A stretch of DNA of 64,000 bases from a bacterium (GTDB lineage: Bacteria > Zhuqueibacterota > Zhuqueibacteria > Residuimicrobiales > Krinioviventaceae), in the NCBI GenBank assembly GCA_963693055.1, contig OY843751.1, forward strand, positions 3,424,001 through 3,488,000, in the 5' to 3' direction. Shown piece after piece: positions 36,761-63,054 of the stretch; position 1 is the stretch's first letter, and the number at the start of each line of letters is the position of its first letter. A program made the translations under genes and the position numbers. The notes under the pieces are model-generated. The model had not been told where the DNA came from, did no database searches, and worked only from the letters and a program-made list of their open reading frames with translations.

Positions 36761-36900
36761 ATCTTTCTCCCCTGGGCAGAATATATTTATTAGTATTTAC
36801 CCATTTGTGTATAGTAACTCCTCTCCCCTTGTTCAGAGGAGACCCAACAAAATCAATTTGCCTTAAATATGCAAGACAATATTACAGATTAGAAGTAAAT

Positions 36901-36930
36901 GTAAGGGTAGACTCGAAAGTCTCCCCCAAC
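36901..36930. repeat. Degenerate GTAG-type REP-like hairpin
   Basis: GTAAGGGTAGAC-TCGAAA-GTCTCCCCC; may also act as the terminator of the upstream operon. Confidence 0.4.
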
Positions 36931-36937
36931 ATACACA

Positions 36938-38776: not shown

Positions 38777-38791
38777 AAGATATACTCCCAA

Positions 38792-41773: not shown

Positions 41774-41788
41774 GGTAGTAATGCTCCT

Positions 41789-43501: not shown

Positions 43502-43535
43502 TTCTCAATCCTGTTTTAATAATTTATTTGTTTAT

Positions 43536-43934
43536 TTATTTATTCAACCACTGCACAAACTCGAGCACATTATTGTCCGGATCTGTTATATACAGCCAGG
43601 TTACCATATCTGGAATCAGCATGGGGCCTTTAAGGATATCTATTTGAGCAGATTTCAACTTTTCCACCAGTGCTTCCAGATTATCCGTCCCAATGGCCAT
43701 ATGCGGACTGTACGGCGGTTTAATTTCATTTTCAGGCGCCGGTATGGGGTTATTTTTCTCGTCCAGCAGTTGCAATAACTCAATGTTGCATCCATCGAGT
43801 TTTAAAAAAGCAAATGCCTCGTGGTGCTCCTCATCCACGGTTTTGGACATGAGCTCCAGTCCCAGTTTTTCCTGATAAAATTTTATCGAAACATCCAGAT
43901 CAGAGACCTGAAACGCGAAATGATCAGCAAACAT
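43536..43934 (-). CDS. VOC family protein (glyoxalase/epimerase fold)
   Basis: DHFAFQV.DL, IELL, HMAI, DPDNNVLE metal-ligand pattern. Confidence 0.88.
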   Translation of the reverse strand: MFADHFAFQVSDLDVSIKFYQEKLGLELMSKTVDEEHHEAFAFLKLDGCNIELLQLLDEKNNPIPAPENEIKPPYSPHMAIGTDNLEALVEKLKSAQIDILKGPMLIPDMVTWLYITDPDNNVLEFVQWLNK

Positions 43935-46515: not shown

Positions 46516-46569
46516 CACTCCAAAAAAATTTATAATTTTCACTTTTAATATTGAGATTATTAATTGGAC

Positions 46570-49122
46570 CTATTTAGCATATTCCATAAATTGATGAAAT
46601 GCATTTTTATGTTCCAAACCATGTTCAGCGTAATGCGTAATACCCTCCCTTTCCGTTATCTCACAAAAACGGGAATATGTCCCATCCTGTTTAGATTGCA
46701 GGGGGTATCGCAAACATTTCAAATACATTAACGGCAGTCTGGCCACCTCTACACGCTGCAGTATTTCCTGATCATCTGCAACGGCCTCCGCACGATCAAA
46801 AATATCACTAGCCTTATATATAAAAGAATCAGGAAAAATCTTGTCTTCGGGAGTAAGGCCCAAATGGATATGGGTATTTGGTTTTACAAGGTCATGAAGT
46901 AAATTAAAATAATCATGAACAAACTTTCCACTACGTCCATAATATCCATACATAAAGTCATCAATTACATCATCCACATCACAATCGGGATTCCACAAGA
47001 GTTTCGAGATTACATAGGCACGTAATTCAGCAAACTCGCCTCCACGACTCTGATAAGCAGCCTGTTCCATAATACCTATGGCATTGTTTTCACGGAATGT
47101 TTTAATATTCTCTTGTAAAACACCAAAATTGGGATACGGCATTATGTAGTGGCTAAAATTCACTACATAATCCCATATATACATATGCGGAGCAATTGCT
47201 GACCAGCCTTGTAGATCATCCATAAAGGATTGATTTTCAGGACAGGATTTAAAATCATGCGCAAAGCAACATTCAATGCTGCACAAGCGGATAACGACAT
47301 TTTCTCTCGGCTTGATATTTTTACAGGGCTTGCGGGTATACTGATATGCAAGTGTGCCCACATATTTATCTGGAAATTCTTTTTCAATATCTTTGGCTAC
47401 CTTGTTAACAAACCAAATCAATGGTCCTGCTTCAGTCTCTTCTTCCTTTGCAATTTTCTGACATTTTTCGCATTGGCAGGGATTATAATAGTCATTTTGT
47501 GATACAGAAAAAATCAAGCAATCTGGATTTTCACGCATCGCTTGTTTTAGGCGTTTTGTGATAATCTTGAACACATCTGGATTAGTAAGACAGAGTTGAG
47601 CGCGCTCATGAATACGTTTGCCATCAATCAAGCTATAGTATTCGGGGTGCTCATCATAAAATTCTGTTGGAGGCATAAACCGATAAAAGGTATGCACAGC
47701 CCAGTAACCTTCTACACCGCCGGGTTGTTCACGGCTATTCATTGCACCATTTACACGGTTTCTCGCCGCCCAAACCGGATCAAAGGCTTCATAATAAAAA
47801 TCATTGCGCACCCGAATTCCTGGTGCCTCTTTATGATTCAAATAGTCAAAGACATATTCGTCTTTTTGCGGCGCTGATGTAACCTGTGGCGTATACCAGC
47901 GTAAACCCAGTTCATTTTCCAAAAAGCTGAGCACACCATACATGGTACCACGTTGAGGATCACCCCATATATATATATGTTGTCCTATAGTTTCATAAAT
48001 AAAAGATTCTGACAAAATATCAGATTTCTTCAAGATTTCAGGGCTTACAAACGGATTAAAGCCAATAACTATTGAAGGCTTTTTAGGATGGAATCTATTC
48101 ACTATTGGAAAAAACGCACCGCTAACCTCGTTTAACCAGTGCTGCAACTCTTTTGCAGCCCATTGTTCAGAATCTGAAGCCTTGTCATCAACCACAATAA
48201 CATATGGGGTTTTGCGGTTTTTAAACAGGGTATATTCTTTTCGCTCCCCTACACCAAACGTATGGGTTTCTCTCCATTGCTGTCCATCTGCAAATTGTGC
48301 GGTAAAAGTCAATTGATACATTTGATAAATTTTTGACTCAACAGGTAGAATATTCTCTTTCACAGGGTCCAGTGTTCCCTTCCAGATAACGGTTTCCGGA
48401 GAGTCTAACAATGACACCTGGATAATTGTATCTTTGAATAATGACTTTAATACACCGTCATCATACTTGAAACGCATGACAGCATGATTATTCTGATTCA
48501 ACATTTTAAAATATGAAACGGGACGAATTTTTGATTCTATTGGTAAAAAACGGGCACAAAACGCCCACACATTGGCTCGTTCTTCAACTTTGAAAAGCAG
48601 TGTATTTTTCCCTTTTTTCAACAAAACAGGTAATAAAATATCATCTGCGGTTACTCCCCTTGGTTCAGGACGGTCCCAGATTTGGGTCCCGTTTAACCAT
48701 ACACGACCTCCGTCATTACATCCCAGAGACAAAAAGCAAACCTGATCATTAGGAGAATTAATTTCCCGGTACATATAGGCACAGACAATATCTTCTTTAC
48801 TTATAAAATCATCCAGACTAATAACAGAATCAGTTGCAACAATATCTTTAAATATCAAAGTATTGCCATTTACAGATATTGATTGACCGTTTACAATGTT
48901 AGGATTTCTCTCTCCGCCTATAGATACAAGATAATCGGTCTCAAATCCGGGAATATGCTCCTGAGTAAGATCGGAATGATTGCCAGGTTGAAGCTGAATA
49001 GGACCACTAACGGTCCATTCTTTCATCCATTGGCCCATTTTTAAATCTGCGCTAAATGCACACATATTTACAAGCAGTAAAAACAACAATACGACTAAAA
49101 GGGTGCGGTGTATTGCTCGCAT
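46570..49122 (-). CDS. DUF4838 domain protein (GH-like), paralog 2
   Basis: Same motifs as the neighbour with a near-identical C-terminal half; GGAG RBS, ATG 49122. Confidence 0.82.
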   Translation of the reverse strand: MRAIHRTLLVVLLFLLLVNMCAFSADLKMGQWMKEWTVSGPIQLQPGNHSDLTQEHIPGFETDYLVSIGGERNPNIVNGQSISVNGNTLIFKDIVATDSVISLDDFISKEDIVCAYMYREINSPNDQVCFLSLGCNDGGRVWLNGTQIWDRPEPRGVTADDILLPVLLKKGKNTLLFKVEERANVWAFCARFLPIESKIRPVSYFKMLNQNNHAVMRFKYDDGVLKSLFKDTIIQVSLLDSPETVIWKGTLDPVKENILPVESKIYQMYQLTFTAQFADGQQWRETHTFGVGERKEYTLFKNRKTPYVIVVDDKASDSEQWAAKELQHWLNEVSGAFFPIVNRFHPKKPSIVIGFNPFVSPEILKKSDILSESFIYETIGQHIYIWGDPQRGTMYGVLSFLENELGLRWYTPQVTSAPQKDEYVFDYLNHKEAPGIRVRNDFYYEAFDPVWAARNRVNGAMNSREQPGGVEGYWAVHTFYRFMPPTEFYDEHPEYYSLIDGKRIHERAQLCLTNPDVFKIITKRLKQAMRENPDCLIFSVSQNDYYNPCQCEKCQKIAKEEETEAGPLIWFVNKVAKDIEKEFPDKYVGTLAYQYTRKPCKNIKPRENVVIRLCSIECCFAHDFKSCPENQSFMDDLQGWSAIAPHMYIWDYVVNFSHYIMPYPNFGVLQENIKTFRENNAIGIMEQAAYQSRGGEFAELRAYVISKLLWNPDCDVDDVIDDFMYGYYGRSGKFVHDYFNLLHDLVKPNTHIHLGLTPEDKIFPDSFIYKASDIFDRAEAVADDQEILQRVEVARLPLMYLKCLRYPLQSKQDGTYSRFCEITEREGITHYAEHGLEHKNAFHQFMEYAK

Positions 49123-49145
49123 TTTGACTCCGGTGTTTGGGTAAA

Positions 49146-49177
49146 AGCCGGGACAGGGGTAGAACATAGTCCCGGCT
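49146..49177 (-). other. Intergenic stem-loop inside the operon
   Basis: AGCCGGGAC-N14-GTCCCGGCT between the DUF1080 stop and the DUF4838 RBS. Confidence 0.5.
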
Positions 49178-49185
49178 GGGTAATA

Positions 49186-49779
49186 TTATTTGCTTAAATC
49201 ACGACAATAGAGATCTTTGGCTTCAATGGTCATACCGGGATTATGTCCCTGAATTGCAAAATGACCTTTGGTGTATTCTGCATCTTGCCAATCTGTCATC
49301 AATTGATCATTGATCCAGATCTGAATGTGGCTGCCAACAGCTTTAACTTTCATGGTAAACCATTCTTCATCTTTGGTAATCAGTTCTTTGGCCTTGCCGG
49401 TGGGGGTACCGGGTTTCCACAGCCAACCGGTAAAAGCATCGCCCCTATTGGTGATTTGTGCTTCATAACCACGGGGAAAACCATCCGGATTGTCTTCAGG
49501 GGGATTAGCGCGGAAATAAAATCCGCTGTTTCCATTTGCACTGACTTTGAACGTACCTTTTACTTCAAGATCGGTTAAAACGGGATCCGCGTAAATATGG
49601 CCCATTCCACCTTCTCCAACCAATACACCATCAACCACTTTCCATTCTGCTTTACCTCGCACGGTCCATCCGTCAAGATTTTCACCGTTAAACAAAGATA
49701 CCCATTCAGGCTCTTTTTCAACCGCACATGACATGAACATAGCTGCAAGCAGTACAGTCAACAACATGATTTTTTTCAT
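49186..49779 (-). CDS. DUF1080 (3-keto-disaccharide hydrolase/hydratase-like) lipoprotein
   Basis: Lipobox FMSC, SLFNGENLDGW, GNSGFYFR, GYEAQI, GHFAIQGH. Confidence 0.88.
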   Translation of the reverse strand: MKKIMLLTVLLAAMFMSCAVEKEPEWVSLFNGENLDGWTVRGKAEWKVVDGVLVGEGGMGHIYADPVLTDLEVKGTFKVSANGNSGFYFRANPPEDNPDGFPRGYEAQITNRGDAFTGWLWKPGTPTGKAKELITKDEEWFTMKVKAVGSHIQIWINDQLMTDWQDAEYTKGHFAIQGHNPGMTIEAKDLYCRDLSK

Positions 49780-49818: not shown

Positions 49819-50895
49819 TTAATTATATCTTTTTGAAATTGCTTTACACGTATTAATAAAAAATAAAATTCTATCATCAGGCGTACCCGCTTCTATATCA
49901 GCGGCTACAATATCACATGGACCGTAATCCGTTGCAATTCTTTCCAGGTCTGCCAGGATTTCCTGATACGATTTATTCGCAAGGTCCATAGGCGTATACA
50001 TGATAGCACGACGTGCCTGGGGAAACAACTCTTTTGATTTGACCAAATCAGAATGCAGTCCCATATCAATATATCCTACATTGGGGATTTCAGCATAACT
50101 TTCAAGATAGGGATCAGCCGTCCATGCGCAATTGTGAATACCAATACATCCAAATTCTTCCGCAAGTCGTTTATCAAATGGCAGCACAAATTCTCGATAT
50201 AGATCCGCAGACAACATATTAACCAGACAATTACTGATGGTAAAAAATGACACCTTGAAACCGGCATCCGCCTGAACTTTGTAGAGGCGCTTTGCCGCAT
50301 CTGTCATGGTTTTATAAACACATTCAAACAAATGCTTAACCAACTCGGGACGTTCATACATGTCCATGAATAGTTGCTGGCCCCGCAAACGCTGGGCATT
50401 GTTCAAGATACCCTGCCAGTTGATAAAACCGGTTACGCTCCCTTGCATCGTTTTGATTTGTACAACCTGCTCCAGCAGTGCATTGAAAAATGGATTGCTA
50501 TCCAAATCAGGAGGAACAAGCTCTGACATTTGCTCATCCGTAAAATAATTTGATTCATAGGCTGGCCAATTCTGTTTTTCGTATCGGATGGGTATTCCAT
50601 AAATCCCGGCAATTGTACAAGCACCATGTGTACCTGTCAATAAATCCAGGGGTAAATCCGTATTGCCGAAATGCGTATCAGGAAACCGTTGATTTAATAT
50701 CCGTCGCATATCAAGAACAGATTCTTTGCGATAGACAGGATCAGTATGCCAACGTTCACCAAAATCAATATCCAGATATTGACGATACCATGCCGGTGTA
50801 AATCCGATTTCAGGGCGCAGATAGGGTAATTCTCCATCAACCGGACGACGTGTTGCCGGTGCTGCAGGTGCAATATAACTAGAGAGTTGGTTCAA
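49819..50895 (-). CDS. Uroporphyrinogen decarboxylase / MtaA-like TIM-barrel protein
   Basis: LRGQQLFMDMY..PE, MLS..LYREFVLPF, IHNC (HxC), terminal IEAGTPDD. Confidence 0.7.
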   Translation of the reverse strand: MNQLSSYIAPAAPATRRPVDGELPYLRPEIGFTPAWYRQYLDIDFGERWHTDPVYRKESVLDMRRILNQRFPDTHFGNTDLPLDLLTGTHGACTIAGIYGIPIRYEKQNWPAYESNYFTDEQMSELVPPDLDSNPFFNALLEQVVQIKTMQGSVTGFINWQGILNNAQRLRGQQLFMDMYERPELVKHLFECVYKTMTDAAKRLYKVQADAGFKVSFFTISNCLVNMLSADLYREFVLPFDKRLAEEFGCIGIHNCAWTADPYLESYAEIPNVGYIDMGLHSDLVKSKELFPQARRAIMYTPMDLANKSYQEILADLERIATDYGPCDIVAADIEAGTPDDRILFFINTCKAISKRYN

Positions 50896-50898
50896 AAA

Positions 50899-51816
50899 TC
50901 ATTTTCCTTTGATGTCAAGGCTGGTGATTAAATCAATAACACGATTGATCAACAAATCAGCAGTTTTTTCATGGATTGTATCAAAAGTCAGAATTGGTTC
51001 TCTGACGTTTGAGGTTGTGTATATTCCCTGCTTGTATAGCAGTCGTTTAAAAAAGTGTATGGATATATCCAAATGTTGATTAGCAAATGCAAGAACGGGC
51101 AAAAGTTTGTAAAACAGGGATTTTGCCTGTTCAATTTTATTCTCTTTATATAATCTGTAAATTTCACAATAAATCTCGTGCATACCGGTGGGCATGAATG
51201 CATGCACACCCCGATCCAATCCTTCTATCATTTGCTGAACCGCCCAACCTCCGGAAACGTTCAGTCTGTCCTGGGTTGCGGCTAGTATCTCGCTGTATTT
51301 TACTCCTGCGGGCACGACTTCAATTTTCAAGCACCTGAATGCATCCACCGTATCAAACAAATCGCAGATCAAGGGGACAGGTAAACCATACCCGCCAAAA
51401 TCCCAGTCCTGCAGCATGATCATATCAACATCCATTTCTGCAATGCGATACAGATCAGAGCGATACTGATTTTCATCCTGAAATGGTATTTGCAGCAGAA
51501 TATTTTTACAACCCGTTTGAATCAGATCCTGAACAATCTGAATGCGCTTTTCAACATCCAGTTCGCCCGCACCGCCAATGACCGGCACCCTGTTATCGAC
51601 CTGTTCCAGCACTGTGGAAACAATGTCTCTGCGTTCCTTACGGGATAATTTATATACTTCGGATGCCATTGCCGGTACCAGAAAGCCACCAACACCGGCC
51701 TGGATAGCATTTTCCACATTTCGTTTTAATCCGGAAAAATCTATCCGATCCTCTCTAGTAAAAGGAGTATTGAGTACCGTAACAATCCCAAACAATGGGT
51801 ATAATTCTTTTATCAT
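50899..51816 (-). CDS. DHDPS/NAL family enzyme, AraD (2-keto-3-deoxy acid dehydratase)-like
   Basis: TPF...IDF, AMASE in place of GTTGE, IMLQD in place of the catalytic Tyr, Schiff-base LKIE, FMP. Confidence 0.78.
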   Translation of the reverse strand: MIKELYPLFGIVTVLNTPFTREDRIDFSGLKRNVENAIQAGVGGFLVPAMASEVYKLSRKERRDIVSTVLEQVDNRVPVIGGAGELDVEKRIQIVQDLIQTGCKNILLQIPFQDENQYRSDLYRIAEMDVDMIMLQDWDFGGYGLPVPLICDLFDTVDAFRCLKIEVVPAGVKYSEILAATQDRLNVSGGWAVQQMIEGLDRGVHAFMPTGMHEIYCEIYRLYKENKIEQAKSLFYKLLPVLAFANQHLDISIHFFKRLLYKQGIYTTSNVREPILTFDTIHEKTADLLINRVIDLITSLDIKGK

Positions 51817-51825
51817 TTCATCGAT

Positions 51826-54153
51826 TTATTGTTTAATTAACCAGACATCAGAAATATGAGACCACTGGCGCCAGTTCAATTCCAATTCTTCCGTTTTCCG
51901 GTCAAAGGTTAATTTAATGGTTCCGTCACTAACAGCAGATTGCGGGACAGTAAATTCTTTAAATGTTTCCATCTCTTTATTATACATTGTATAGGTAATA
52001 CGCTCACCGTCAATACGGGGAAAAGCCTCACCAAATCCCGAAATCCGTAATATATACGATGCTTCAGGATCAAGATCATGATATTCCAACACCGGAGAAT
52101 ACTGGAACACCTGAGAAGACAAACGGGCACGGCTTTTACCTTCATCCCACCAGGCAAAATGGGGTGCTACGTCCGAACAGAATACAGTATGTAGCGACTG
52201 GGCTACACTGCCAATGTTATCATAATAACTACCGGGAGTAGGCTTTTCCCAATCGGCCAGCACTTTGATGCGGGCCAACTTTTCTTTATCTGTAGATAAG
52301 TTGCTAATCTTTTCAAACTCATCCGCTAGCCACCACCGATTATTGAGAGGATAATCAACAAAATCAAGAACGCAACCGCGTTCCGGATTTTTAGCCTGGT
52401 ATTTGGGTACACTGGTTTGCAATCCAATGGACTGATACAAATTTTCGCACAGATCCACAATCCGCTGCCGTAAATCCGGCGCAACACAATGATTATCAGC
52501 CTGTTTCAACAACGCCAAAGCGGATTGCATAGCAGTACCGCTAGCGATATCTCCCGCCTTAGCCAGGATCCGGTTGGCTTTGATTTCAAGATCATTTTCG
52601 TATAAAAATCGACGGCGCTGATAAGCATCATAATTGGCTCGCAGCAGGCACAACTGCCAACGCCAGTTGCCGGCAAGCTGTGGGTACTCTTGTTCCAGAT
52701 CCTTCCAGTAAGCAAGCGTAGCCTCTATACCGCCATTCTGACGGATGGGGCCCACCCAGTTACCTTCAAGAGCAAGAATTCCATAAGCGGCTTTTTCAGC
52801 AACCTGATCATTGAAAAACAACCGGCAATAATCGGTAACAATTTTTTGTACATCCTGTTCCGGGTCCCAGGCAAGTTGAGACCAAAGGGCCTTGTTCACA
52901 TCATCATGCACACCATCGGAATAGGCCAGAAATCCGTCTGTAAAAGGAGCAGTCTGTTGAAATATTTTAGCGTAATAATAGGGCTGGGGATTCGAAGCTT
53001 CACGTCCCAGCGTAAGGGCAAAAGCCTGATCCCACCATTCCACAGGGTACTGACAGGTCATATTGTGGGTAATATCAGGATAATGACGGTGTTTATATTG
53101 CTTTGGTAAACGGTAACGGGTCTCGGACATGGACGGGCTGCCCGGTCCGGATACTACACCCTCAAGCCAATCCGGCTTTTCACGCTCTAGATAATCAAAA
53201 AAATAATCCACTTTTTCAGCATTGAACCCCTGTAACGAGATCCACATACCAGCAGTTGGGTGAGATTGTTTTAATAGTTTTGTCAGTTCTTTTAGATACG
53301 GCATCACATCTCGGGGGTGATTGTGGCCAGGATCGCCGCCCGGAAAGAATACATTATCAAGCCGGGGACAAGTTTTGAAAAATTGTTCATGTTCTTCAAG
53401 AGCTGCCACACGCTTTTCAGTATCGGTCAGATCAAACTGTGCAGGCATCCAGCACCAGTAATCCATATCATATTTAATGCAAATCTCACTGATCTTTTTA
53501 TTCATCTCTTCACGAGGCAGTTTGAAATGCGGACTGGGGCTATCCTGCATGGGGATATTTTCAATACAATTGGCGCCAAAAAGTGCCAGCTCACGGATGT
53601 ACTGATCAAACTGCTGAGGGGTCCATGCGTCCCACGAGTTGGCAGTATTACGGTACCCCAACTGATGTCCACGGATCTGATATTGTGGGCCTGAATATAT
53701 ATCTAATTCATCAGGAATCGTTATCGATCCTTTTTGCAAATCCATTAAAATTAAAAGTCGCCCCACACCATACAACGTACCGCGACGATGTGCTCCCAAA
53801 ATCCACAACTGGGGCTGGCTGTTTTCATGGATTAAAGAGAGATAAAATGCATCCTGCTCATGAAAAGGTCTGTTTAGGGATTCAGGGATCTTTTTAGCAT
53901 ATTTTTTATTGTTACTTTTATGGATCGCAATTACCGGTTTATCAGATGGCCAGGAATGGACCACGGGGAGTTTTATTCCGGTACGTTTTTCGATCTCTTC
54001 CGCAAGCACCTCTGCCGAGACCTGCACAATATGCTCTGAATCATCGCTGATAACAATAACCGCATCATTCAGATTGATTTCACCGGCAAACGCTGAAACG
54101 TGCAAAGTCAAAAAAGTAGAAATCAGTATGAAAATATATTTTCTATTTCTCAT
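51826..54153 (-). CDS. Secreted uncharacterised GH-like protein (GH20/GH67-type N-terminal domain plus putative barrel)
   Basis: Signal peptide, EEIEKRTG, RGTLYGVGRLL, HQLGYR..ANSWDAW, FFPGGDPG, YPDITH, YSDGVHDD. Confidence 0.65.
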   Translation of the reverse strand: MRNRKYIFILISTFLTLHVSAFAGEINLNDAVIVISDDSEHIVQVSAEVLAEEIEKRTGIKLPVVHSWPSDKPVIAIHKSNNKKYAKKIPESLNRPFHEQDAFYLSLIHENSQPQLWILGAHRRGTLYGVGRLLILMDLQKGSITIPDELDIYSGPQYQIRGHQLGYRNTANSWDAWTPQQFDQYIRELALFGANCIENIPMQDSPSPHFKLPREEMNKKISEICIKYDMDYWCWMPAQFDLTDTEKRVAALEEHEQFFKTCPRLDNVFFPGGDPGHNHPRDVMPYLKELTKLLKQSHPTAGMWISLQGFNAEKVDYFFDYLEREKPDWLEGVVSGPGSPSMSETRYRLPKQYKHRHYPDITHNMTCQYPVEWWDQAFALTLGREASNPQPYYYAKIFQQTAPFTDGFLAYSDGVHDDVNKALWSQLAWDPEQDVQKIVTDYCRLFFNDQVAEKAAYGILALEGNWVGPIRQNGGIEATLAYWKDLEQEYPQLAGNWRWQLCLLRANYDAYQRRRFLYENDLEIKANRILAKAGDIASGTAMQSALALLKQADNHCVAPDLRQRIVDLCENLYQSIGLQTSVPKYQAKNPERGCVLDFVDYPLNNRWWLADEFEKISNLSTDKEKLARIKVLADWEKPTPGSYYDNIGSVAQSLHTVFCSDVAPHFAWWDEGKSRARLSSQVFQYSPVLEYHDLDPEASYILRISGFGEAFPRIDGERITYTMYNKEMETFKEFTVPQSAVSDGTIKLTFDRKTEELELNWRQWSHISDVWLIKQ

Positions 54154-54162
54154 TTTCTTGAT

Positions 54163-54990
54163 CTATTCCACCTTTTGAACAATGGGAACGCCAATTTGTG
54201 GTAATTTATATTGAATTTTATCTTTGGCAGCAAGAACAAAATCATTGATATCCACAGTATTAATGGTAAACATGTTGTAATGCATGGGAATTGTAGTTTT
54301 GGCATTGATAGCAGTAGCAAAATCAATTGCTTCTTCTATGGAAAAATTGGGTTCAAGATTATATTCTGGTGATTTTTGCCCATTGATTGGTAAAAAAGCA
54401 ATATCAATATCAAAAGGTTTAATATAATCCAATTGTTCTACATATGGCACAGTATCCCCAGCAAAAAACAGCGTTATTTTACCCAGGCGTACAATAAAGC
54501 TGAGATACGGATATCCATAATCATGATTATAATCCAGATCAGAATGTGCAGCAGGTATTGCATAAACACTGATTTGTTGAAATACTTTGGAATCCAAGCC
54601 TCTCAACAGTCCCAGTTGGGTTGGATTAACATATAATCCCTCCAAACGTTTTCTGGCCGCCTCCGGGGCAATAAAAACCGCATCAGGATTACGCTGGGCA
54701 ACGATAGGTATAGTAAAGGGATCAATGTGGTCTACATGATCATGGCTGCACAATACATAATCAATACCCTGAATATCTTTAGGTTCTATGGGTATTGCAC
54801 TCATACGAACATGCTGATTTGGGGTACCCGCAGTCCATTGTTCAGCAAAATCAGACAAATACGGATCAAACAATAAATTCAAAGACTGATAACGGATTAA
54901 AAATCCATTTTGACCCAGCCATACAAATGCCAGTTCCTGCTCAGAGAGTTCAAGATTTTCCAATTTTTCTAGAATAATATGCTTTGTCAT
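54163..54990 (-). CDS. MBL-fold metallo-hydrolase (UlaG-like sugar lactonase)
   Basis: WLGQ.GF, DPYLS, SHDHVDH (HxHxDH), PAAH, AGDT, PING, PMHY. Confidence 0.85.
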   Translation of the reverse strand: MTKHIILEKLENLELSEQELAFVWLGQNGFLIRYQSLNLLFDPYLSDFAEQWTAGTPNQHVRMSAIPIEPKDIQGIDYVLCSHDHVDHIDPFTIPIVAQRNPDAVFIAPEAARKRLEGLYVNPTQLGLLRGLDSKVFQQISVYAIPAAHSDLDYNHDYGYPYLSFIVRLGKITLFFAGDTVPYVEQLDYIKPFDIDIAFLPINGQKSPEYNLEPNFSIEEAIDFATAINAKTTIPMHYNMFTINTVDINDFVLAAKDKIQYKLPQIGVPIVQKVE

Positions 54991-55790
54991 GCTATCTCCT
55001 GTTTTACTGAAAACAGTTGCTTTTGTGCGGATTCATTAATATGTCCAATATTCATCCAGTTTAATCCCAGCAACTCTGCCGCTATTCGATCTATAGTTAT
55101 AGGGTCTGTACCTGCAATCAATTGATTTACATGGGGACTACATTCACGTCCACCCAGGTGAAAATCAGCCAGTCCTATGCTTGCATCCATCAATGTCATA
55201 TCCGGTGCACGATAGCAATTGAGATCAACAATTGCCTGATGCATCATATGATGAAACACTGCTTTTTTCCATGAGCCAAACCTTCCCGAATAATATTTAG
55301 GGGGCGCAATACCCATCATATTCTTGAGGGTCCCTGTTATTTGAGCCAGGGAATGTGCTTTTAACACCGGCACTGATATCAGATAATGCGAAAAAACAAT
55401 TTCAGGTAAATACATTTCAGGAAAAACATTACAGTCAGATCTTTTTATTTTTACGAGTGGTGTATGGTTCAAATCAACCAATTTAATATTATATTGTGAT
55501 GCAATTTGATCATAACCCAAAATCCGGAAAACCTCGTCCGTTTCCATGCTCATGTCACCACATCCTTCTGCAATGACAATCTCTGCATTAGAGCAACCCT
55601 GAATATACTCTACAATTGCAGCACTATTTGCCGGAGAGGTTGTTATGGGATGTTTAGATGCCATAATCAGATTGGGCTTTATAAGAATATGGGTCTGTTC
55701 AGCAAATATTTCTGCTGCACCAATTTTATTTAAAATTTCAAAAACTGAAGTCTTGAAAGATTTAAAATTAACAACTGCTGTACTACTCAT
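54987..55790 (-). CDS. DUF362 family protein
   Basis: ILIKPN, ITTSP, IAEGCG, ISVPVLKAH...ITGTLKNMMG, DP..ID..AA; start ATG 55790 with GTAGG RBS. Confidence 0.85.
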   Translation of the reverse strand: MSSTAVVNFKSFKTSVFEILNKIGAAEIFAEQTHILIKPNLIMASKHPITTSPANSAAIVEYIQGCSNAEIVIAEGCGDMSMETDEVFRILGYDQIASQYNIKLVDLNHTPLVKIKRSDCNVFPEMYLPEIVFSHYLISVPVLKAHSLAQITGTLKNMMGIAPPKYYSGRFGSWKKAVFHHMMHQAIVDLNCYRAPDMTLMDASIGLADFHLGGRECSPHVNQLIAGTDPITIDRIAAELLGLNWMNIGHINESAQKQLFSVKQEIA

Positions 55791-55806
55791 ACTACCTACC
55801 TCTTTT

Positions 55807-56571
55807 TTATAGATCAGGACGACTAGCGCAAAATCCCAATGTAAGACCACCATCAACTGTAAAAGAAGAACCTGTAATATAATTTGCTTCTTCTGAAGCC
55901 AGGAACAACACCATGTTTGCAATTTCACGTTTAGATCCTACGCGTCCTGCAGGTACGGCTGTTAAAAACTGTTTCTGCCTGTCAGGATCGGTTAAACGTG
56001 TTGCTATCGCTCCCGGAGCAACCTGATTAACCTGAATATTATACTCTGCCAATTCAAGCGCCATATTTTTAGTTAGCATAACCAAACCACCTTTTGCAGA
56101 GCTGTAATGCGAAAAATTACGCTTGGTCTGGTATTCATGTACAGAACCAATATTAATAATCTTTCCCCCGCCCTGTTCAATCATCATTTTTGCAGCAAGC
56201 TGTCCGCAAAGAAATGGCGCTTTTAAATTCACCGCCATGATCCGGTCCCAGTCTTCTTCCGGCATATCAATAAAGGGAACATTGTTCTGTGTTGCTGCAT
56301 TATTTACCAATACGTCAAGCCGGCCGAAATGGGAATTAATTTTTTTAAACAGTTTACGAATTGCCTCTGGCTCTTCCAGATTACAAACCAGGCTAATGGA
56401 TTCAGGACTGTGGGGAATGACTTGTTCCAAAGCCGATGTAATTTCTGTATTATAATCCGGGCCATGAACAATCACTTTGGCGCCTTCACGCGCAAAACAG
56501 ACAGCAGTCTCTTTACCAATACCTGACACCGAACCGGTTACAAGAACAATTTTACCATCAAATCTTTTCAT
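55807..56571 (-). CDS. SDR family oxidoreductase (sugar dehydrogenase-like)
   Basis: TGSVSGIG, NNAA, YSSAK, VAPG, VDGG. Confidence 0.92.
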   Translation of the reverse strand: MKRFDGKIVLVTGSVSGIGKETAVCFAREGAKVIVHGPDYNTEITSALEQVIPHSPESISLVCNLEEPEAIRKLFKKINSHFGRLDVLVNNAATQNNVPFIDMPEEDWDRIMAVNLKAPFLCGQLAAKMMIEQGGGKIINIGSVHEYQTKRNFSHYSSAKGGLVMLTKNMALELAEYNIQVNQVAPGAIATRLTDPDRQKQFLTAVPAGRVGSKREIANMVLFLASEEANYITGSSFTVDGGLTLGFCASRPDL

Positions 56572-56577
56572 GTTTCC

Positions 56578-57657
56578 TCAATCCGCTTTCCACGGTTCAA
56601 AAACAACTTTGAATGCAGCTTTGGGTTGTTGTAATAACAATTCAAACGCTTGCTCAAATTCATCCAGAGGGAATGTATGGGTTATCCATTTACTTACATC
56701 CAGTTTACCGGTATTGAGTAATTGATAAGCTCTAACCAGATCAGAATTAAACGCATTGGACGATGTGGTCAATGTTCGTTCCGAACCAAGAGCCATGGCA
56801 TTCATGTTTACCGGTGTATCATGTACTGCCATATTAACCCAGGTACCTCCTTCCTCAAGCAAGGGTAAAAGATTTTGAATCATTTCACCGGAACCAACCG
56901 AATCAAATATCGCGGCAAACTTTATATTTTTCTCAAGCAGATATTCGTTTAGATCAACTGTTGCAGGATCAATCACTGTAAACTGTGGATAATTTGCCAA
57001 AACGTTTTGAGCAATGGGTGACGGATCAGAAATATAGACGGGAACATTGCTCAACGTTTCAACAACCTGAGCAATACCCAAACCAGCAGGGCCTCCTCCT
57101 ATGCACAAAACGTTCGCGCCGTCATAAATCCGGACCCGTTCAGAAACATGTACCGCAACGCACAAAATATCTGCCATTGCAGCCGATGCAAAATCCAGGT
57201 CATCGTCCAATGGATGCAAGAGATCAGCCCAACCCAAACAATACTCGGCATATCCACCGGGGAAATATTCCATATCTCCCCACCCCTGGGCATGGCCAAT
57301 ATGGATCATATCCCGGCATAAATTCTCACGACCGGTTGTACAAAAGTTACATTTACCGCACACCCGATAAGACTGAACGCCAACCCGTTTTCCAAGCAAA
57401 TGTTCATATTCTGACGAATTAACAGCCTCAACAACTCCTGAAAATTCATGTCCCATCACCATATTGGGAGGATTGTCTACATGTTTACCCAGTGTATGCA
57501 GTGCCCATGGATTTTCTCCCGCCCAGTAACGCAGGTCACTTCCACAGATACCACAAGCTTCCACCCGGATCAGAACATGGTTCTTTTCTGTCATAACCGG
57601 TTTGGGAATATCCAATAGTTGGAGTGTTTTAGGTTTTGTTAATACAACTGCTTGCAT
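56578..57657 (-). CDS. Zn-dependent (MDR) sugar/polyol dehydrogenase
   Basis: CGICGSD, GHE, CxxCxxC(7)C structural Zn site, GGGPAG; start ATG 57657 with AAGGA RBS. Confidence 0.9.
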   Translation of the reverse strand: MQAVVLTKPKTLQLLDIPKPVMTEKNHVLIRVEACGICGSDLRYWAGENPWALHTLGKHVDNPPNMVMGHEFSGVVEAVNSSEYEHLLGKRVGVQSYRVCGKCNFCTTGRENLCRDMIHIGHAQGWGDMEYFPGGYAEYCLGWADLLHPLDDDLDFASAAMADILCVAVHVSERVRIYDGANVLCIGGGPAGLGIAQVVETLSNVPVYISDPSPIAQNVLANYPQFTVIDPATVDLNEYLLEKNIKFAAIFDSVGSGEMIQNLLPLLEEGGTWVNMAVHDTPVNMNAMALGSERTLTTSSNAFNSDLVRAYQLLNTGKLDVSKWITHTFPLDEFEQAFELLLQQPKAAFKVVFEPWKAD

Positions 57658-57665
57658 ATTATCCT

Positions 57666-60098
57666 TTATTCTGTTACAGCGGCATCTATAAAGCCATGAT
57701 AACGTCCCATCCAATATGCCAATAACCAGGATGCACCATCATCTTCGTTTTTACCACTTTTGCCACTGTCAGGGTAATAGGGATTTTTGTTCCATTTATT
57801 AAAATTCGTTTCATCCGCCGGGAGTACAGTAATTAACTGTGGTCGGTCAAACCGGTCCTTACGGGGATTCAAAATTACATCAGCACGGTTACTGTTGATC
57901 ATTTCCCACTGGCGTCTATCAGTGGGGATCTGTCTCAAATTGGTAACCGCACTTTTTATGTCAACAAAATCAAGATCAATTGTAGCTGCAGCAAAATAGA
58001 AAAAAGCGGAACCATCGGTCCACAAGGTTTTATAATGTCTACGCACAGCGCGTTGTAATGCGTTTCTCGCTTTATCCCCATGCTCTAACTGAAGTATGGG
58101 GTACAGGGCACAAAATCCCAATTGATTATCTGAATGATTATTCTCATCAGGAAAGACTTTTTTCTCCAAAAGCACATTACCCAGATAACCATGTTCCTTA
58201 ATCAATTTATCATAATGTTCCTTGTACTTGAGATCACCGGTAATATAATAGGTTACTTTGAGAAACGACAAGATTTGCGCGGCATTTAAACCATTTTCAA
58301 TATAATGATCCGGATCATCATTCAGGTTTTCGGGATTCCAGAATCCCCAGCGGGTTCGTTCACCATCCCAGTCAATCAACTGGTAATTATGGTCCACAAT
58401 ATAATCCATAAGGATTGATATTTGCTCTATTATCAATTCCCGTTCTTCCGGAATGAACCGTGCAATATGTTCCCAATAGGCATAAAAAGCAAAGAAATGA
58501 CCATCAATTTCATCACTGGACGTATCACTTTTCCAGATCATTTTACCGTCTGGTGTTACCCGCCATTGCGGGCTTTTGTTTTTCTTTTCAGAAACAGGCA
58601 GCACACTGCGTGCAACCAAACCGGGTATACCGGAAGCATTCTGCAGCATGATCATAGCATGCATGCTCTTTTTTGCAGATTCAAGATAATCGATCCGGTC
58701 AGTTACCGCATATGCCATAGACATGGCAACTACATGATAAGATGTCCATAAACCATCATTATCATTATCAATGATAACATGTCTAGTAGGATTCTCAGCA
58801 TCATCAAATGTACAAGCGGCTACAAGTCCCAGGCGGCGATGATATTTGTTCAATCGTTTTTCAATAATCTCTGCTTTTTGTTCCAATGTTCGTTCAACAG
58901 CACCCAGTTTACTGATTCCTTTGGATGTTTTAAAATAGACCGGCATTCCATTAGGTGGTATAGCAATATCGTTAACAATATTATCTATTAAATAACGCTT
59001 GCCGGCACGATAATACCATTGACGATCCGAAACATAAGGTTTGTACAGAATAGCGCCTTCCGATGTACCGATCCAGATTTGGTCACTCTTATCAATAGCC
59101 AGGCAATTTACAGATTCAACCGGCAAACCCTGTTTCCCCCGGATTATCGACCAGGTACCATCAGCATCCAACCGTCCCAGGCCCGCTCGTGTTCCAACCC
59201 ACAATGTTCCCTTAGAGTCAAAAGCTAGATCTGAAATAAAAGAAGCCGGGGGACCGTCAATACCATAGCTGTTATGACGAACTGCCGTTTTAGAACCAGC
59301 CTTAACAAAATATAACCCCATAGTGGTACCAAACCAGGTAATATCTCCGTTTTGCGCAACAGATGTAATCTGGTTATTTTCCACAGGTGGATCAAAAGTA
59401 AACTTTTGAACATTCTGCATTTGCTGAAACAGCTTTTCGGCTAGTTTGTATTCGTCTTTGTCCAGAGATTGGCGGACATGCTGTACAAAAGGTGTATCTT
59501 TAACAGGGATGTATTCTGTTGCATAGGTCAAAAGCTCAAGATCATCTTCATAATCCAGGGCTGGTACGAGATTAGGTAATATATAATCACCATCAATTTC
59601 AAAAGGTTGACGAATCCATGCTTCATTGACAATAACGTGCTTCATTCCTTTATCTGTATTATAAATCAGGTTAATTTTTTTATCAACGGTTTGTAACAGT
59701 GAATAGAACGCATTACAGCCTTCCGGTTCCAACTCGCGATATAGCGGCCACGACTTTCCGCCATTGGGTGAAAACCACAAGCTCAACTGGTCCTTTCCGG
59801 TAAAACTACCGGAATTTATTGCCATAACAACATTACCAGATTCCAGTTTTATGATATCCCATGCAGCGCCTGCTATCACTTTACGCTGTAATCCCATATA
59901 TTCATCATAATCCGGAGACTTTTCGACAGCACCCAGATTAATCTTGACCAGAGAGCCGTCAGACATTTCTACAAGAACAGGAGTTTGGTCTTGATTCACA
60001 TTAACCATATTAACTTTATAATACGGCTGCGCCAGTGATACCAGCGCACCCGATATTATCATATAAAATAGTAAATAAAAACGAACGAACCTGAACAT
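57666..60098 (-). CDS. Secreted chimeric protein: BNR fragment, Reg_prop-type propeller repeats and putative (alpha/alpha)6 catalytic barrel
   Basis: Signal peptide; SPNGGKSW Asp-box; DSKGTLWVGT and DKSDQIWIGT repeats; DNDNDGLWTS, WKSDTSSDE, TRWGFW, YWMGRY. Confidence 0.65.
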   Translation of the reverse strand: MFRFVRFYLLFYMIISGALVSLAQPYYKVNMVNVNQDQTPVLVEMSDGSLVKINLGAVEKSPDYDEYMGLQRKVIAGAAWDIIKLESGNVVMAINSGSFTGKDQLSLWFSPNGGKSWPLYRELEPEGCNAFYSLLQTVDKKINLIYNTDKGMKHVIVNEAWIRQPFEIDGDYILPNLVPALDYEDDLELLTYATEYIPVKDTPFVQHVRQSLDKDEYKLAEKLFQQMQNVQKFTFDPPVENNQITSVAQNGDITWFGTTMGLYFVKAGSKTAVRHNSYGIDGPPASFISDLAFDSKGTLWVGTRAGLGRLDADGTWSIIRGKQGLPVESVNCLAIDKSDQIWIGTSEGAILYKPYVSDRQWYYRAGKRYLIDNIVNDIAIPPNGMPVYFKTSKGISKLGAVERTLEQKAEIIEKRLNKYHRRLGLVAACTFDDAENPTRHVIIDNDNDGLWTSYHVVAMSMAYAVTDRIDYLESAKKSMHAMIMLQNASGIPGLVARSVLPVSEKKNKSPQWRVTPDGKMIWKSDTSSDEIDGHFFAFYAYWEHIARFIPEERELIIEQISILMDYIVDHNYQLIDWDGERTRWGFWNPENLNDDPDHYIENGLNAAQILSFLKVTYYITGDLKYKEHYDKLIKEHGYLGNVLLEKKVFPDENNHSDNQLGFCALYPILQLEHGDKARNALQRAVRRHYKTLWTDGSAFFYFAAATIDLDFVDIKSAVTNLRQIPTDRRQWEMINSNRADVILNPRKDRFDRPQLITVLPADETNFNKWNKNPYYPDSGKSGKNEDDGASWLLAYWMGRYHGFIDAAVTE

Positions 60099-60108
60099 CT
60101 AGCTACCA

Positions 60109-63054
60109 TTATTTATTTTCAACTGATAATTTAAAATCCTGAAACTCTACCCAATAGGGTACCTTGTCACAGGAACCGCCGGCAAGCCCAATATCGATGG
60201 TTTCTTTCAAACCGGGCAGATCATTGGTATTGCGTTCACGGGTCCATGTTTTGCCATCCAGACTGACATAACCGGTAAAACTGTTGCCATGACGAATTAG
60301 CTTCAACCATACCGGGTATTTCACATCTTCGGGAAGATTGGCACTGCTCGCCTTGTGCATACAACCATCACCAAACTCGTCATAATTAATACCGGCACGC
60401 CCCGGCGTGGTAAACATGAGTACAGATCCTTTACTTCCCGGTTCAGTATCAAAACTTTTTGATATATCATTACGCGCGAACAATCCGGTTCTAAACCATT
60501 CATGGGTACGGTTGCCAAAGCCATTCACCTTGACTGTTGCAACAAAGTTACCTTTAACACCTTTAATATAGGCAGAAGCATATGAATCTTCAGCATGATA
60601 AAAATCCGATCCACTTGCTTCTATTTTAACCTTGTTTCCCTTTTTGTCTATATCCACTTTATAGGGAAAAGCCGTGCCTGAGCAATAAACCTTGAAATCC
60701 GATTTTTTAATCTTTACTGGTTGATGAGCAAAAACAGAGAGTTTCTTTTGAGGGCTGTTGCCAATTTGAACAGTATAATCCCCGGCCTTGGGTTCAAGTT
60801 CAAACTGCACAGAAACCGAGCTGTTTGCCTTTATATCAATCTGTTTTTCCTGCGCAGATTTACCATTCATTAACAAAACAGCTTTAACAGACTGATTCGT
60901 CCCGGTTTGATTAAATGCAGTTGAAGAAACAGTAATGATCTCTCCTTCAGGTATCAAATCATGATCAAGTGTCAGTTCTTTATAAACAACCGGTACATAA
61001 TCTCCCTGAACGTTGACAGATTGATACGGAGTATCTCCAATAGCAACACGATGTTCACCCGGTTCAAACAGACGTAATCCAAATTCTATAGTGCGTGTAT
61101 TGTTTTGTATTACCGGTATGGATTGCGTTTCATATACTTTTCCATCCAGATAAAGCTGTACAGGCATGATTCCAGTGGCTCCGGAATTGTGTACCTCCGC
61201 AGTGATTGTCAAAAAAGTTCCGGTTTCAATCGTACCTGACAGTTTGCTACCATTGGCTTGAATTAAAAGACCCTCTATATTGAATTCAGGTTCGCCTTCA
61301 ATAATTCCCTGTGGAGTGATTTCAGGAGCATCAATTACAAAATTATTACGATAAATATTATCAACCAAATTGGCTGCACAGAGTTTCATTTCACCTTGCT
61401 GTAAATTATAGAAAATATTCTCTTCCGATATCCAACCGGATGACATGTTATCAAACCAGAAACCTACATTGTCATTAAAGTAACCGGCAATTACATCGTG
61501 CACCAAATTTCTGCGAACTATTGAATCATAGGTCAAGCCGGTGGTTTTGATAGCCCCCGAATCATCCGCGTCTTTCTGTACCTGGTATAAATGATTATAC
61601 TCTACACGATATCCGCATTCAATAGATTCTTCAAGATTTCGCCAACCACCAACGGCAATTGCGTAACGACCGCGAGTATAACTGAGTTCATTATGGGATA
61701 TAGTAGTAAACTGTGTATTATTGGCAACAATATTTACACCACCACAATTGGTAATCACATTACGGGAAATGGTCGTTTCCCGGATTATGTCCCGCCAATC
61801 CATGGGGTGTGGATTTCCAATCACATGAATTACACCATTATCAATCATTTCAAATGAATTGTCCAGAATCTTTGTCAGGTAACAACCATCACCCAGAAAA
61901 ACTCCGGTTCCGGCAATTGCACTCAAACGGGATCCTACAAGTTCGCAGGAATGAGCATATTCAATAGAGACCGCCTTGCCCTTTTCAAGAGTAGATTCAA
62001 AGGTCAGGCCATAAATGCGCAAATTGCGAACAGGCTTGTCCGGTGTTCCTTTTATCACAAACAGTTCTTGGAGTTCGGGGACGACAAGGTGTGTCTGGTT
62101 CGGATTTACGCCATTTTCCGGGATATAACTGAGCTCATCTTGCTCTTTATCATAAAACCATTCTCCCGGAGCATTCAACAGTTCTTTGACATTTTCAACA
62201 TAAAAACGGGGCGGTACAATTACAATACCCGGTTGAGGTTTTTCGAGGGTGGCTACACCCTTTTTTACATCAATGCTTTTAATGGAATTTAATCCGGCAT
62301 GCCAACGCAGCAAGAGTTTGATACGGTTACCTTCCAGACCTTCCCAATCATCAAGATCACCTTTGCGGAAATAAAGCTCAGTATCTGTTTTGGAAATAAC
62401 GGGGGGGGTAAAATATTCTTTATCCGGTGTGCGGGCCAGTATTTGTTTGCGTCCGTCTGCAACAAGCATGTTTACAGAACCGTCTACTTTGGCTGTCCAT
62501 TGATCGCCTTTTTTACTCCAACCGGAAACCGGTTTACCGCCGGAAATAACAGGTTTTTCACCGGGATACGCAGCCCAGGTCACATAATGGTCTTTGAGTT
62601 TGTGATATTCAAATGCCCCTGTAGGAAGGTTTGTCTCAACTCTCTCTCCACCATCAAGAGGGCCGAAAACAACAGGGGCATTTAAAGTGTAAAATCCTTC
62701 ACGGATCAATACGAGTATGTCTTTGCCTTTTCCCAATTCATGAGGTGAACCAATCCAGCGTTTCTCCACAGGTTCATCTTTGGGAAAATAGACTTGCTTT
62801 TTTAAATCTCTTACAGCCTGCTGTGCGCGATTAATCGTTGCAAATGGGCCATCTGTTTTATTTGCATTAGGTTCTGCAAGTGTGCCGGACCAGGTATCGT
62901 TACCATCCGGAGATACATAAAAGTCTGCTGAGGTTTCGGTGTTGGAATACTGCTGCCATTTTTCACCACGTAGCAATTTACCATCTGCCAATGTTATAGA
63001 TGATAAACAAAAGAAAAGAAAAATCCAAACAATTTTAATTTGATTCCGTGTCAT
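60109..63054 (-). CDS. Right-handed beta-helix protein (GH141-like) with Ig/CARDB domains and ConA-like C-terminus
   Basis: FYVSPDGND.WSG...DGPFAT..RAQ, YPGEKPVISGG, PGEWFYD, DDSGAIK, FWFDN; C-terminal WLKLIRHGNSFTGYVS.DG. Confidence 0.75.
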   Translation of the reverse strand: MTRNQIKIVWIFLFFCLSSITLADGKLLRGEKWQQYSNTETSADFYVSPDGNDTWSGTLAEPNANKTDGPFATINRAQQAVRDLKKQVYFPKDEPVEKRWIGSPHELGKGKDILVLIREGFYTLNAPVVFGPLDGGERVETNLPTGAFEYHKLKDHYVTWAAYPGEKPVISGGKPVSGWSKKGDQWTAKVDGSVNMLVADGRKQILARTPDKEYFTPPVISKTDTELYFRKGDLDDWEGLEGNRIKLLLRWHAGLNSIKSIDVKKGVATLEKPQPGIVIVPPRFYVENVKELLNAPGEWFYDKEQDELSYIPENGVNPNQTHLVVPELQELFVIKGTPDKPVRNLRIYGLTFESTLEKGKAVSIEYAHSCELVGSRLSAIAGTGVFLGDGCYLTKILDNSFEMIDNGVIHVIGNPHPMDWRDIIRETTISRNVITNCGGVNIVANNTQFTTISHNELSYTRGRYAIAVGGWRNLEESIECGYRVEYNHLYQVQKDADDSGAIKTTGLTYDSIVRRNLVHDVIAGYFNDNVGFWFDNMSSGWISEENIFYNLQQGEMKLCAANLVDNIYRNNFVIDAPEITPQGIIEGEPEFNIEGLLIQANGSKLSGTIETGTFLTITAEVHNSGATGIMPVQLYLDGKVYETQSIPVIQNNTRTIEFGLRLFEPGEHRVAIGDTPYQSVNVQGDYVPVVYKELTLDHDLIPEGEIITVSSTAFNQTGTNQSVKAVLLMNGKSAQEKQIDIKANSSVSVQFELEPKAGDYTVQIGNSPQKKLSVFAHQPVKIKKSDFKVYCSGTAFPYKVDIDKKGNKVKIEASGSDFYHAEDSYASAYIKGVKGNFVATVKVNGFGNRTHEWFRTGLFARNDISKSFDTEPGSKGSVLMFTTPGRAGINYDEFGDGCMHKASSANLPEDVKYPVWLKLIRHGNSFTGYVSLDGKTWTRERNTNDLPGLKETIDIGLAGGSCDKVPYWVEFQDFKLSVENK

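Follow-up and report, generated by a model that had tools for sequence, protein, structure and literature searches.

A predicted corrinoid-dependent methyltransferase of the UroD fold, paired with an AraD-like lyase in bacterial glycan loci

We analysed a 64,000-nucleotide stretch of a Krinioviventaceae genome (GenBank assembly GCA_963693055.1, contig OY843751.1, positions 3,424,001 to 3,488,000), here called the window, and within it a minus-strand run of sugar-related genes that an earlier note, made from the sequence alone, had read as one catabolic pathway of six enzymes. Comparison with relatives shows instead two separate modules that are joined only in this genus. The first consists of a Zn-dependent medium-chain dehydrogenase (MDR), a short-chain dehydrogenase (SDR) and a metallo-beta-lactamase-fold hydrolase (MBL), the second of an AraD-like lyase of the DHDPS family and a protein of the UroD fold. 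The UroD-fold protein is probably a corrinoid methyltransferase. From its sequence, its gene context and structural models we predict, at roughly even odds, that it works as a corrinoid (B12)-dependent O-demethylase that removes a methyl ether from a sugar acid, with its partner proteins encoded elsewhere in the genome.

Two modules joined only in this genus

The genes lie in the order that the earlier note had given, namely MDR, SDR, a DUF362 protein, MBL, a secreted GH20b-like protein, the DHDPS-family enzyme and the URO-D family protein, with a VOC protein further downstream. They form part of a same-strand run of 21 genes (G000:C1:3493791-3459606; G000 is the complete genome that carries the window, and G- and L-numbers denote genomes and loci), the first three of which lie past the window end, the run extending about 6 kb beyond it. 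Nineteen of the 20 junctions span -35 to +39 bp, the last being 177 bp, and we therefore take the run for one operon. When all 21 genes, including those past the window end, were scanned with Pfam, neither a kinase nor an aldehyde dehydrogenase was seen, and no dehydratase of the enolase, IlvD/Edd or UxuA type; the dehydratase gap is thus real at the level of the operon, as the earlier note had supposed. Elsewhere in G000, the single IlvD sits among ilv/leu-like genes, the enolase superfamily is represented by a MenC-like gene and a 427-aa protein at C1:3231893, there is one UxaA-type gene at C1:1734224, and no UxuA was found. A patchwork, in which the aldonate made by MDR, SDR and MBL is handled by a canonical dehydratase outside the operon and the UroD-fold gene is unrelated, could draw on the 427-aa protein and the UxaA-type gene. 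Both are unlinked to the operon, however, the only IlvD has its own context, and the conserved pairing of lyase and UroD-fold protein would be left unexplained, so that we consider this very improbable; as regards the first module it is compatible with the explanation we prefer.

A scan of species genomes for the URO-D-like protein returned 87 relatives, from which 80 loci were kept (48-62% identity, plus a sister genome, L003, at 91%); neighbours were counted in the 79 loci other than L003. The whole block occurs only in the sister genome. Near the URO-D-like gene of the other loci there is no DUF362, MDR or MBL orthologue, the nearest approaches being one MBL of 36% identity, one distant MDR and two generic SDRs. 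A DHDPS-family gene, by contrast, is present in 24 of the 79 loci (12 of the window type and 13 of the canonical aldolase type, one locus having both), and the lyase and UroD-fold genes are often adjacent. Genome counts agree with this division. Among 167 genomes of the phylum, the UroD-fold protein occurs in 15, MDR and the lyase in 8 each, MBL in 5 and DUF362 in 3; all five are found together only in G000 and its sister G085, while G118 has four of them, on three contigs. With these two sisters excluded, the UroD-fold gene is present in 5 of 6 genomes with the lyase and in 8 of 159 others (Fisher p = 8e-6, where kin are not independent), and MDR shows no link to it (p = 0.39). The first module occurs somewhere in 3 of the 50 UroD-fold genomes covered by the genome-level MDR search, which did not include L054-L082. 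The linkage of lyase to UroD-fold gene, together with the lack of linkage to MDR, thus identifies two modules that were fused in this genus.

The first module was followed through 37 MDR orthologue loci (6 genome regions and 31 metagenome contigs), leaving aside L153-L163 (11 loci of 24-34% identity) and the fragment L152. The Zn ligands and catalytic motif of MDR (C38, H70, D163) are invariant in 30 of 30 orthologues and the catalytic S143, Y156 and K160 of SDR in 13 of 13. SDR adjoins MDR in 13 of the 37 loci, and MBL follows in four, with one more case in G190 (L097, L123, L126, L129 and L171 have MBL after MDR-SDR). The label of lactonase given to MBL earlier is a family-level label only, the best matches being weak ones of the UPF0173/UlaG type. 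The remaining partners differ among loci: in L097 and L123 they are a cytidylyltransferase, a BNR gene and a DUF1080 domain, 70% identical to that of the window, which follows MDR-SDR-MBL; in L138, AraA; in L136, a GHMP kinase. In L144 and L146, whose MDR homologues are more distant (49-54%), the next gene encodes a UxuA-type dehydratase. DUF1080 proteins are described as acting on 3-keto-glycosides (PMC8121099), and a DUF1080 gene, overlooked in the earlier note, stands directly after the URO-D gene of the window. The first module probably serves as a unit of redox enzymes plus lactonase, acting either on a different sugar of the same glycan or on a later product. As a separate observation, a KdsB-like cytidylyltransferase gene and a gene for a 396-aa protein without Pfam match lie together in G000 (L219:4687-6619; G000:C1:3701686-3703618), and a pair 66-70% identical to them follows MDR-SDR-MBL-DUF1080 in L097 and L123.

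The protein between SDR and MBL belongs to neither module. Its structural model (predicted local distance difference test, pLDDT, 90.5) has as top Foldseek matches the N-terminal domain of lactate/malate racemases (TMq 0.50-0.63; for 5huq, E 1.7e-6 and TMq 0.57), and DUF362 is placed in the same clan as LarA, CL0471 (PMC11770544, PMC7955657). The subfamily keeps five common cysteines as well as His146 and Lys156, which have the spacing of LarA His174 and Lys184, a correspondence not confirmed by alignment. Unlike LarA, the protein is without the C-terminal domain, and G000 has no LarC (PF01969) and a LarE (TIGR00268) only below cut-off, larB not having been searched. The resemblance is seen by fold search only: profile comparison with the three LarA-like proteins of G000 gave a probability of 0.6% from shallow alignments, and a sequence search of the PDB returned nothing meaningful. 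In 11 loci the gene behind MDR-SDR can be read, and it is never DUF362; the DUF362 subfamily is present in 2 of 79 UroD-fold genomes, at unrelated places. These neighbourhood and genome counts rule it out as a conserved pathway member, and the sole hint of a link comes from G084, in which DUF362 and an MBL orthologue are 4.7 kb apart. We take DUF362 for a passenger or for an addition specific to the genus, in which it might serve as an epimerase, a role that the comparison does not support. The three LarA-family genes of G000 (C1:2929525-2930799, 182982-184271 and 4413271-4414530), two of them with apparently complete motifs, stand in a complete genome with no LarC and no LarE above cut-off.

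These results bear on the route that the earlier note had favoured, a single non-phosphorylative pathway in which DUF362 or the URO-D-like protein supplies the missing aldonate dehydratase. Such a route, assembled in this genus, would accord with the tight operon in two genomes, with the 2-hydroxy-acid racemase fold and conserved cysteines of DUF362, with the arrangement in G084, with the few UroD-fold genomes (3 of 50) that hold the first module somewhere, and with the UxuA-type dehydratase behind distant MDR homologues in L144 and L146, G000 itself having no UxuA. It is nonetheless improbable. None of the 11 informative loci has DUF362 behind SDR, and few UroD-fold genomes have it at all; at a position where Cys is kept by 116 of 120 homologues the window protein has Asn, and LarC and LarE for a nickel-pincer cofactor are wanting. 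Furthermore, no aldehyde dehydrogenase, aldonate dehydratase or terminal aldolase among the 21 genes fits a Weimberg/Dahms-type set, and the set is not conserved. The features of the URO-D-like protein point to methyl transfer and do not favour dehydration; demethylation had been among the options listed.

The UroD-fold protein and its corrinoid partners

Relatives of the UroD-fold protein are spread across many phyla; Planctomycetota, Bacteroidales, KSB1 and Acidobacteriota are among the groups whose glycan loci contain them. All 81 sequences keep Cys223, His254, Asn255 and Cys256, Asp333 is kept in 79 of 79, and seven arginines are invariant or nearly so. By our reading of the motif, the position of the third Cys ligand of MtaA is presumably taken by Ala332/Asp333. 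In hhalign comparisons the family aligns with the MtaA-like paralogues of G000, motif on motif, at 93% probability, and with the genome's own HemE at 0.7%. The latter value, together with a HemE encoded elsewhere in a genome with 11 URO-D family matches, excludes the protein as the HemE of the haem pathway. The structural model (pLDDT 95.4) has the UroD/MtaA/MetE fold and matches MtaA (4ay8) with Z 21.8 and a root-mean-square deviation of 3.8 over 304 aligned residues, and MetE with Z 14.5. A sequence search of the PDB gave nothing meaningful for the family, and the ESM Atlas only clusters labelled 'URO-D family' or hypothetical.

A functional link to corrinoids is suggested by the neighbours of the gene. 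Corrinoid-system genes are found in 7 of the 79 loci, in three arrangements, and six of the seven loci include a homocysteine S-methyltransferase; RACo is present in 4 of the 79. In L059, L061, L063, L068 and L069 the run comprises a corrinoid protein, RACo, an activation-domain-like gene, homocysteine S-methyltransferase, a 114-aa unknown and, as its last member, the UroD-fold gene; it is intact in L068 and L069, and broken, spaced or cut in the other three. L033 and L080 provide the two further arrangements. By chance 0.2-0.7 independent links would be expected, against the three observed (probability of at least three, 0.001-0.03). At the genome level the co-occurrence of a corrinoid protein is uninformative, as 146 of the 167 genomes of the phylum have one. 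G000 encodes possible partners away from the operon: a stand-alone corrinoid protein (C1:1909587-1910252), an S-methyltransferase (C1:2023919) and a MetH-like gene (C1:1579519).

Complex modelling of the UroD-fold and corrinoid proteins of L068 gave a score of 0.78, compared with 0.00 for the best of three controls. This mark is reached by 116 of 157 solved pairs and by 2 of 215 mismatched ones; the runs have at least 90% of contacts in common, with a partner pLDDT of at least 79. Residues of the modelled interface are kept in the window protein (e.g. Phe176, Met179, Leu224, Met227, Pro262 and Met303) and in the corrinoid protein of G000.

Several points weigh against this assignment. True UroD ties with MtaA in the fold search (Z 21.9 and 21.8), and the protein scores 27.4 bits against TIGR01463 (MtaA/CmuA), far from the cut-off of 235.4. 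Neither the window operon nor 72 of the 79 loci, many of them on short contigs, holds a corrinoid-system gene, and five of the seven corrinoid loci represent one inherited cluster, which may be a housekeeping split methionine synthase. The complex was modelled on homologues (54% and 48% identical) without a true-UroD control, and its score may reflect likeness to solved methyltransferase-corrinoid complexes. The RACo activator (PF14574) is absent from G000, which has a gene with a MetH activation domain instead. Finally, His-x-Cys zinc sites usually activate thiol acceptors, which fits methyl transfer in the opposite direction.

Two other functions must therefore be weighed for the UroD-fold protein. 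It could work alongside the AraD-like enzyme as a B12-independent metal lyase, decarboxylase or hydrolase of an ulosonic or aldaric acid. Decarboxylation is what true UroD carries out, the (near-)invariant arginines could bind a polyanion, and the tightest link of the gene is to DHDPS-family genes (24/79), not to corrinoid genes (7/79). We nevertheless think this unlikely, in view of the conserved hydrophobic surface that docks the corrinoid cap motif in the model, the three corrinoid-linked arrangements and the poor match to HemE. Alternatively, it could be an acceptor-type corrinoid methyltransferase, like MtaA or core MetE, that methylates a thiol such as homocysteine with a methyl group released elsewhere. 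The invariant His-x-Cys and the similarity of fold to both enzymes would suit this function, and the complex model is silent on direction. Against it, a homocysteine S-methyltransferase is already present in six of the seven corrinoid loci, and the gene keeps company with sugar-acid lyases, transporters and glycosidases and not with sulfur genes; the acceptor role is rather unlikely. Because the corrinoid clusters already hold an acceptor-side enzyme and the gene lies among sugar-acid genes, the donor-side role, that of a demethylase, appears to be the most economical.

Other neighbours and paralogues of this family deserve mention in their own right. In all five loci of the inherited cluster (e.g. 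L068:5923-8415) the S-methyltransferase and the URO-D-like gene are separated by the unannotated 114-aa gene, and a 410-aa protein of the same loci joins an activation-domain-like N-terminal half to a Cys-rich C-terminal half. In L073, L214:8335-11779 and L217 the URO-D-like gene stands between a barrel-only gene of the pyruvate kinase family and a gene for a 4Fe-4S protein. A second conserved protein of about 360 aa, with no Pfam match and a weak BLAST match to another URO-D paralogue, is encoded near the URO-D-like gene in L007, L013, L015 and L025 (e.g. L013:4803-5897). Archaeal copies occur in Hadarchaeota (L078, L079 and L082), and an OPT transporter and a PfkB kinase are encoded close to two of the three.

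The AraD-like lyase, its glycan context and candidate substrates

The description of the DHDPS-family enzyme as AraD-like was well founded. Its best PDB matches are AraD structures (7c0c and 3fkk, E about 4-6e-11), and Q136, K164 and E166, which align with AraD Gln143, Lys171 and Glu173, are invariant in 14 of 14 sequences. AraD is described as needing Glu200 to take the C5 proton (PMC9795676). In the lyase this residue aligns with Gln195, and Gln is found in 17 of 18 readable homologues, Thr in the other. Because the base Glu200 is missing, the enzyme is, to judge from its residues, not AraD proper; unlike AraD, it also has no Weimberg-pathway context, and overall similarity is weak. We infer a Schiff-base lyase that would eliminate at C4 of a 2-keto-3-deoxy acid other than L-2-keto-3-deoxyarabinonate.

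The surroundings of the lyase/UroD-fold pair are those of glycan degradation. A BNR-type gene is present in 20-22 of the 79 loci, GH20b-like genes and homologues of the operon's 810-aa secreted protein in 13 each, sulfatases in 11, sodium symporters in 9 and GH141-like genes in 7; fucose-isomerase-like genes (3), YhcH (2), AGE epimerase (2) and a sialate esterase (1) also occur. In a distant branch (L208, L212 and L213; 41-43%), genes for a BT1020-like protein, a BNR protein, an HpcH aldolase and an FAH protein lie upstream of the pair; two of the three loci also have, behind the pair, a symporter and a transketolase in split form. The BT1020-like protein matches residues 23-611 of 5MQR (E 1e-136), the half that we take to be the Dha (3-deoxy-D-lyxo-heptulosarate) hydrolase, GH143. 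No aldonate dehydratase is present among the scanned genes of these loci. The neighbours therefore resemble genes for sugars that are already 2-keto-3-deoxy acids, such as Kdo (3-deoxy-D-manno-octulosonate), Dha and sialic acids. Since sialidase-like and Dha-hydrolase-like enzymes would release such acids ready-made, an aldonate dehydratase may be unneeded. This context has its own weaknesses: the operon's second BNR gene matches PDB sialidases only weakly, the BNR counts are raw counts from host genomes rich in carbohydrate-active enzymes, and in L207 a lyase orthologue lies beside an aminotransferase without a UroD-fold gene.

We considered how these activities might combine. Secreted BNR and Dha-hydrolase-like glycosidases would release 2-keto-3-deoxy (ulosonic) acids, some of them O-methylated. 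The UroD-fold protein would move the methyl group to cob(I)alamin on the corrinoid protein, from which it could pass to homocysteine via the S-methyltransferase or the MetH-like gene product. The lyase, before or after demethylation, would form a Schiff base with the keto acid and eliminate at C4. As a tentative proposal, this amounts to a widespread anaerobic B12 route for O-methylated ulosonic acids, such as 5-O-methyl-Kdo from the scales of green algae or the 8-O-methyl sialic acids found in echinoderms, in which glycosidase release, UroD-fold demethylation and transfer of the methyl group to methionine are coupled to a Gln195-type lyase acting on the backbone.

The substrate may perhaps be a methylated ulosonate or its cleavage product, an assignment about which we remain doubtful. 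Candidates are 5-O-methyl-Kdo and 8-O-methyl sialic acid, with methylated neutral sugars of rhamnogalacturonan II a further option. The first is reported, with Kdo and Dha, from sulfated wall polysaccharides of prasinophytes, which are green algae (PMC3355719, PMC10762512), and 8-O-methyl or 8-O-sulfo sialic acids from echinoderms (PMC6994554). Either natural source agrees with the combination of BNR genes, sulfatases and DHDPS enzymes. Judged by the numbering of the carbons, aldol cleavage would yield 2-O-methyl-arabinose or 5-O-methyl-N-acetylmannosamine, each of them closed to normal catabolism; 2-O-methyl-arabinose would match the fucose-isomerase-like neighbours.

Two further glycan-related arrangements were seen. 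A fusion of an FGE-sulfatase-like domain to a BNR propeller (L013:7100-9115 and 12 other loci; in G000, C1:3695128-3697281) is among the commonest neighbours of the URO-D-like gene. A second glycan locus of G000 (L218:5600-12506; G000:C1:3683599-3690505) encodes a GH141-like protein, a GH31 in two overlapping frames, a sodium symporter and a 357-aa protein without Pfam match that by eye resembles another UroD-type barrel.

The operon's genes and known demethylases

The features of the operon are collected in Table 1. Three BNR/sialidase-like propellers, which the earlier note had missed, stand at its head: two Pfam BNR genes and the N-terminus of the 810-aa protein. The GH20b-like protein has no match in the PDB, and at the loci of relatives a VOC gene was found only in the sister genome. 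An N-terminal module is common to the tandem DUF4838 proteins, the 570-aa protein and the upstream amidohydrolase. At least four tandem secreted paralogues of about 1000 aa with repeated C-terminal domains are encoded immediately upstream of the operon (L001:8161-19999). A promoter scan was at chance level (60 vs 53 +/- 7), and no predicted terminator was interpretable.

Table 1. Genes of the operon, with positions in the window.
Feature	Position	Strand	Basis
Zn-dependent medium-chain dehydrogenase (MDR), module 1	56578..57657	-	Pfam ADH_N
Short-chain dehydrogenase (SDR), module 1	55807..56571	-	above NCBIfam NF005559 cut-off
DUF362 protein, LarA N-terminal fold, genus-specific insertion	54987..55790	-	Pfam, structure model, Foldseek
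Metallo-beta-lactamase-fold hydrolase (MBL), likely lactonase/esterase, module 1	54163..54990	-	Pfam
Secreted protein, GH20b/GH67N-like N-terminus, module 2	51826..54153	-	weak Pfam matches
AraD-like Schiff-base lyase (DHDPS family), predicted, module 2	50899..51816	-	PDB matches 7c0c/3fkk, conserved residues
UroD/MtaA-fold protein, predicted corrinoid-dependent methyltransferase, module 2	49819..50895	-	motifs, profile, fold, neighbours, complex model
DUF1080 3-keto-disaccharide hydrolase family, lipoprotein-like N-terminus	49186..49779	-	Pfam
Secreted 810-aa propeller-containing protein, BNR-like N-terminus, module 2	57666..60098	-	N-terminus, weak BLAST match
Secreted beta-helix/GH141-like protein, module 2	60109..63054	-	weak GH141_M and DUF1349 matches
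BNR/sialidase-like propeller, 396 aa, start past window end	63072..64000	-	Pfam BNR
Upstream of the 396-aa BNR gene: second BNR gene, 808-aa unknown, secreted amidohydrolase	beyond window	-	Pfam
Two tandem DUF4838 proteins, 67% identical	43951..49167	-	Pfam
Operon tail: VOC, 570-aa secreted protein, GH106, ceramidase-N/DUF1080 fusion, 384-aa unknown	35606..43934	-	Pfam
VOC	43536..43934	-	

The UroD superfamily is described as including the O-demethylases MtvB, OdmB and VdmB as well as S- and halogen-demethylases (PMC13222342, PMC10418091). With MtvB, OdmB, VdmB and MtoB, which are methyltransferase I proteins, the family of the window shares the UroD-type barrel, the docking to a corrinoid protein predicted for a homologue and, among relatives, a gene linked to those for an activator, a second methyltransferase and a corrinoid protein, as described for these systems (PMC13222342). 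In contrast, those enzymes act on methoxylated aromatics in acetogens and methanogens, whereas the present family is found in glycan loci; the comparison was made without direct alignment. The fold and the His-x-Cys are shared with the MtaA/CmuA and Mlp methyltransferases (TIGR01463; PMC10418091), from which the UroD-fold protein differs in its score far below the cut-off and in the extra invariant Cys223. Bacteroides thetaiotaomicron, also a glycan degrader, has corrinoid/methyltransferase-like 'Mta' genes, BT_0340, BT_0342 and BT_0343 (PMC8941943), but these are annotated as methylamine methyltransferase proteins and are likened here by description, not by sequence. A link of BT0340-BT0343 to a methylated sugar was not borne out by PMC8121099, the tags being absent from its main text.

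In the open-access literature we found corrinoid O-demethylases for aromatics and halides and none for sugars. Methyl ethers block normal sugar catabolism, and the sugar demethylases known to us need oxygen. In marine Bacteroidetes, 6-O-methyl-galactose is demethylated aerobically by a P450, which depends on oxygen and gives off formaldehyde; this resembles the proposed reaction in removing a methyl ether that blocks sugar catabolism, but the route suggested here would be anaerobic and would keep the methyl group. If our prediction of a B12-dependent O-demethylase is correct, one of the many 'URO-D family' genes that stand in glycan loci with no assigned role would gain one, and a conserved protein family would tie the breakdown of algal or animal glycans in anoxic settings to B12 one-carbon metabolism.

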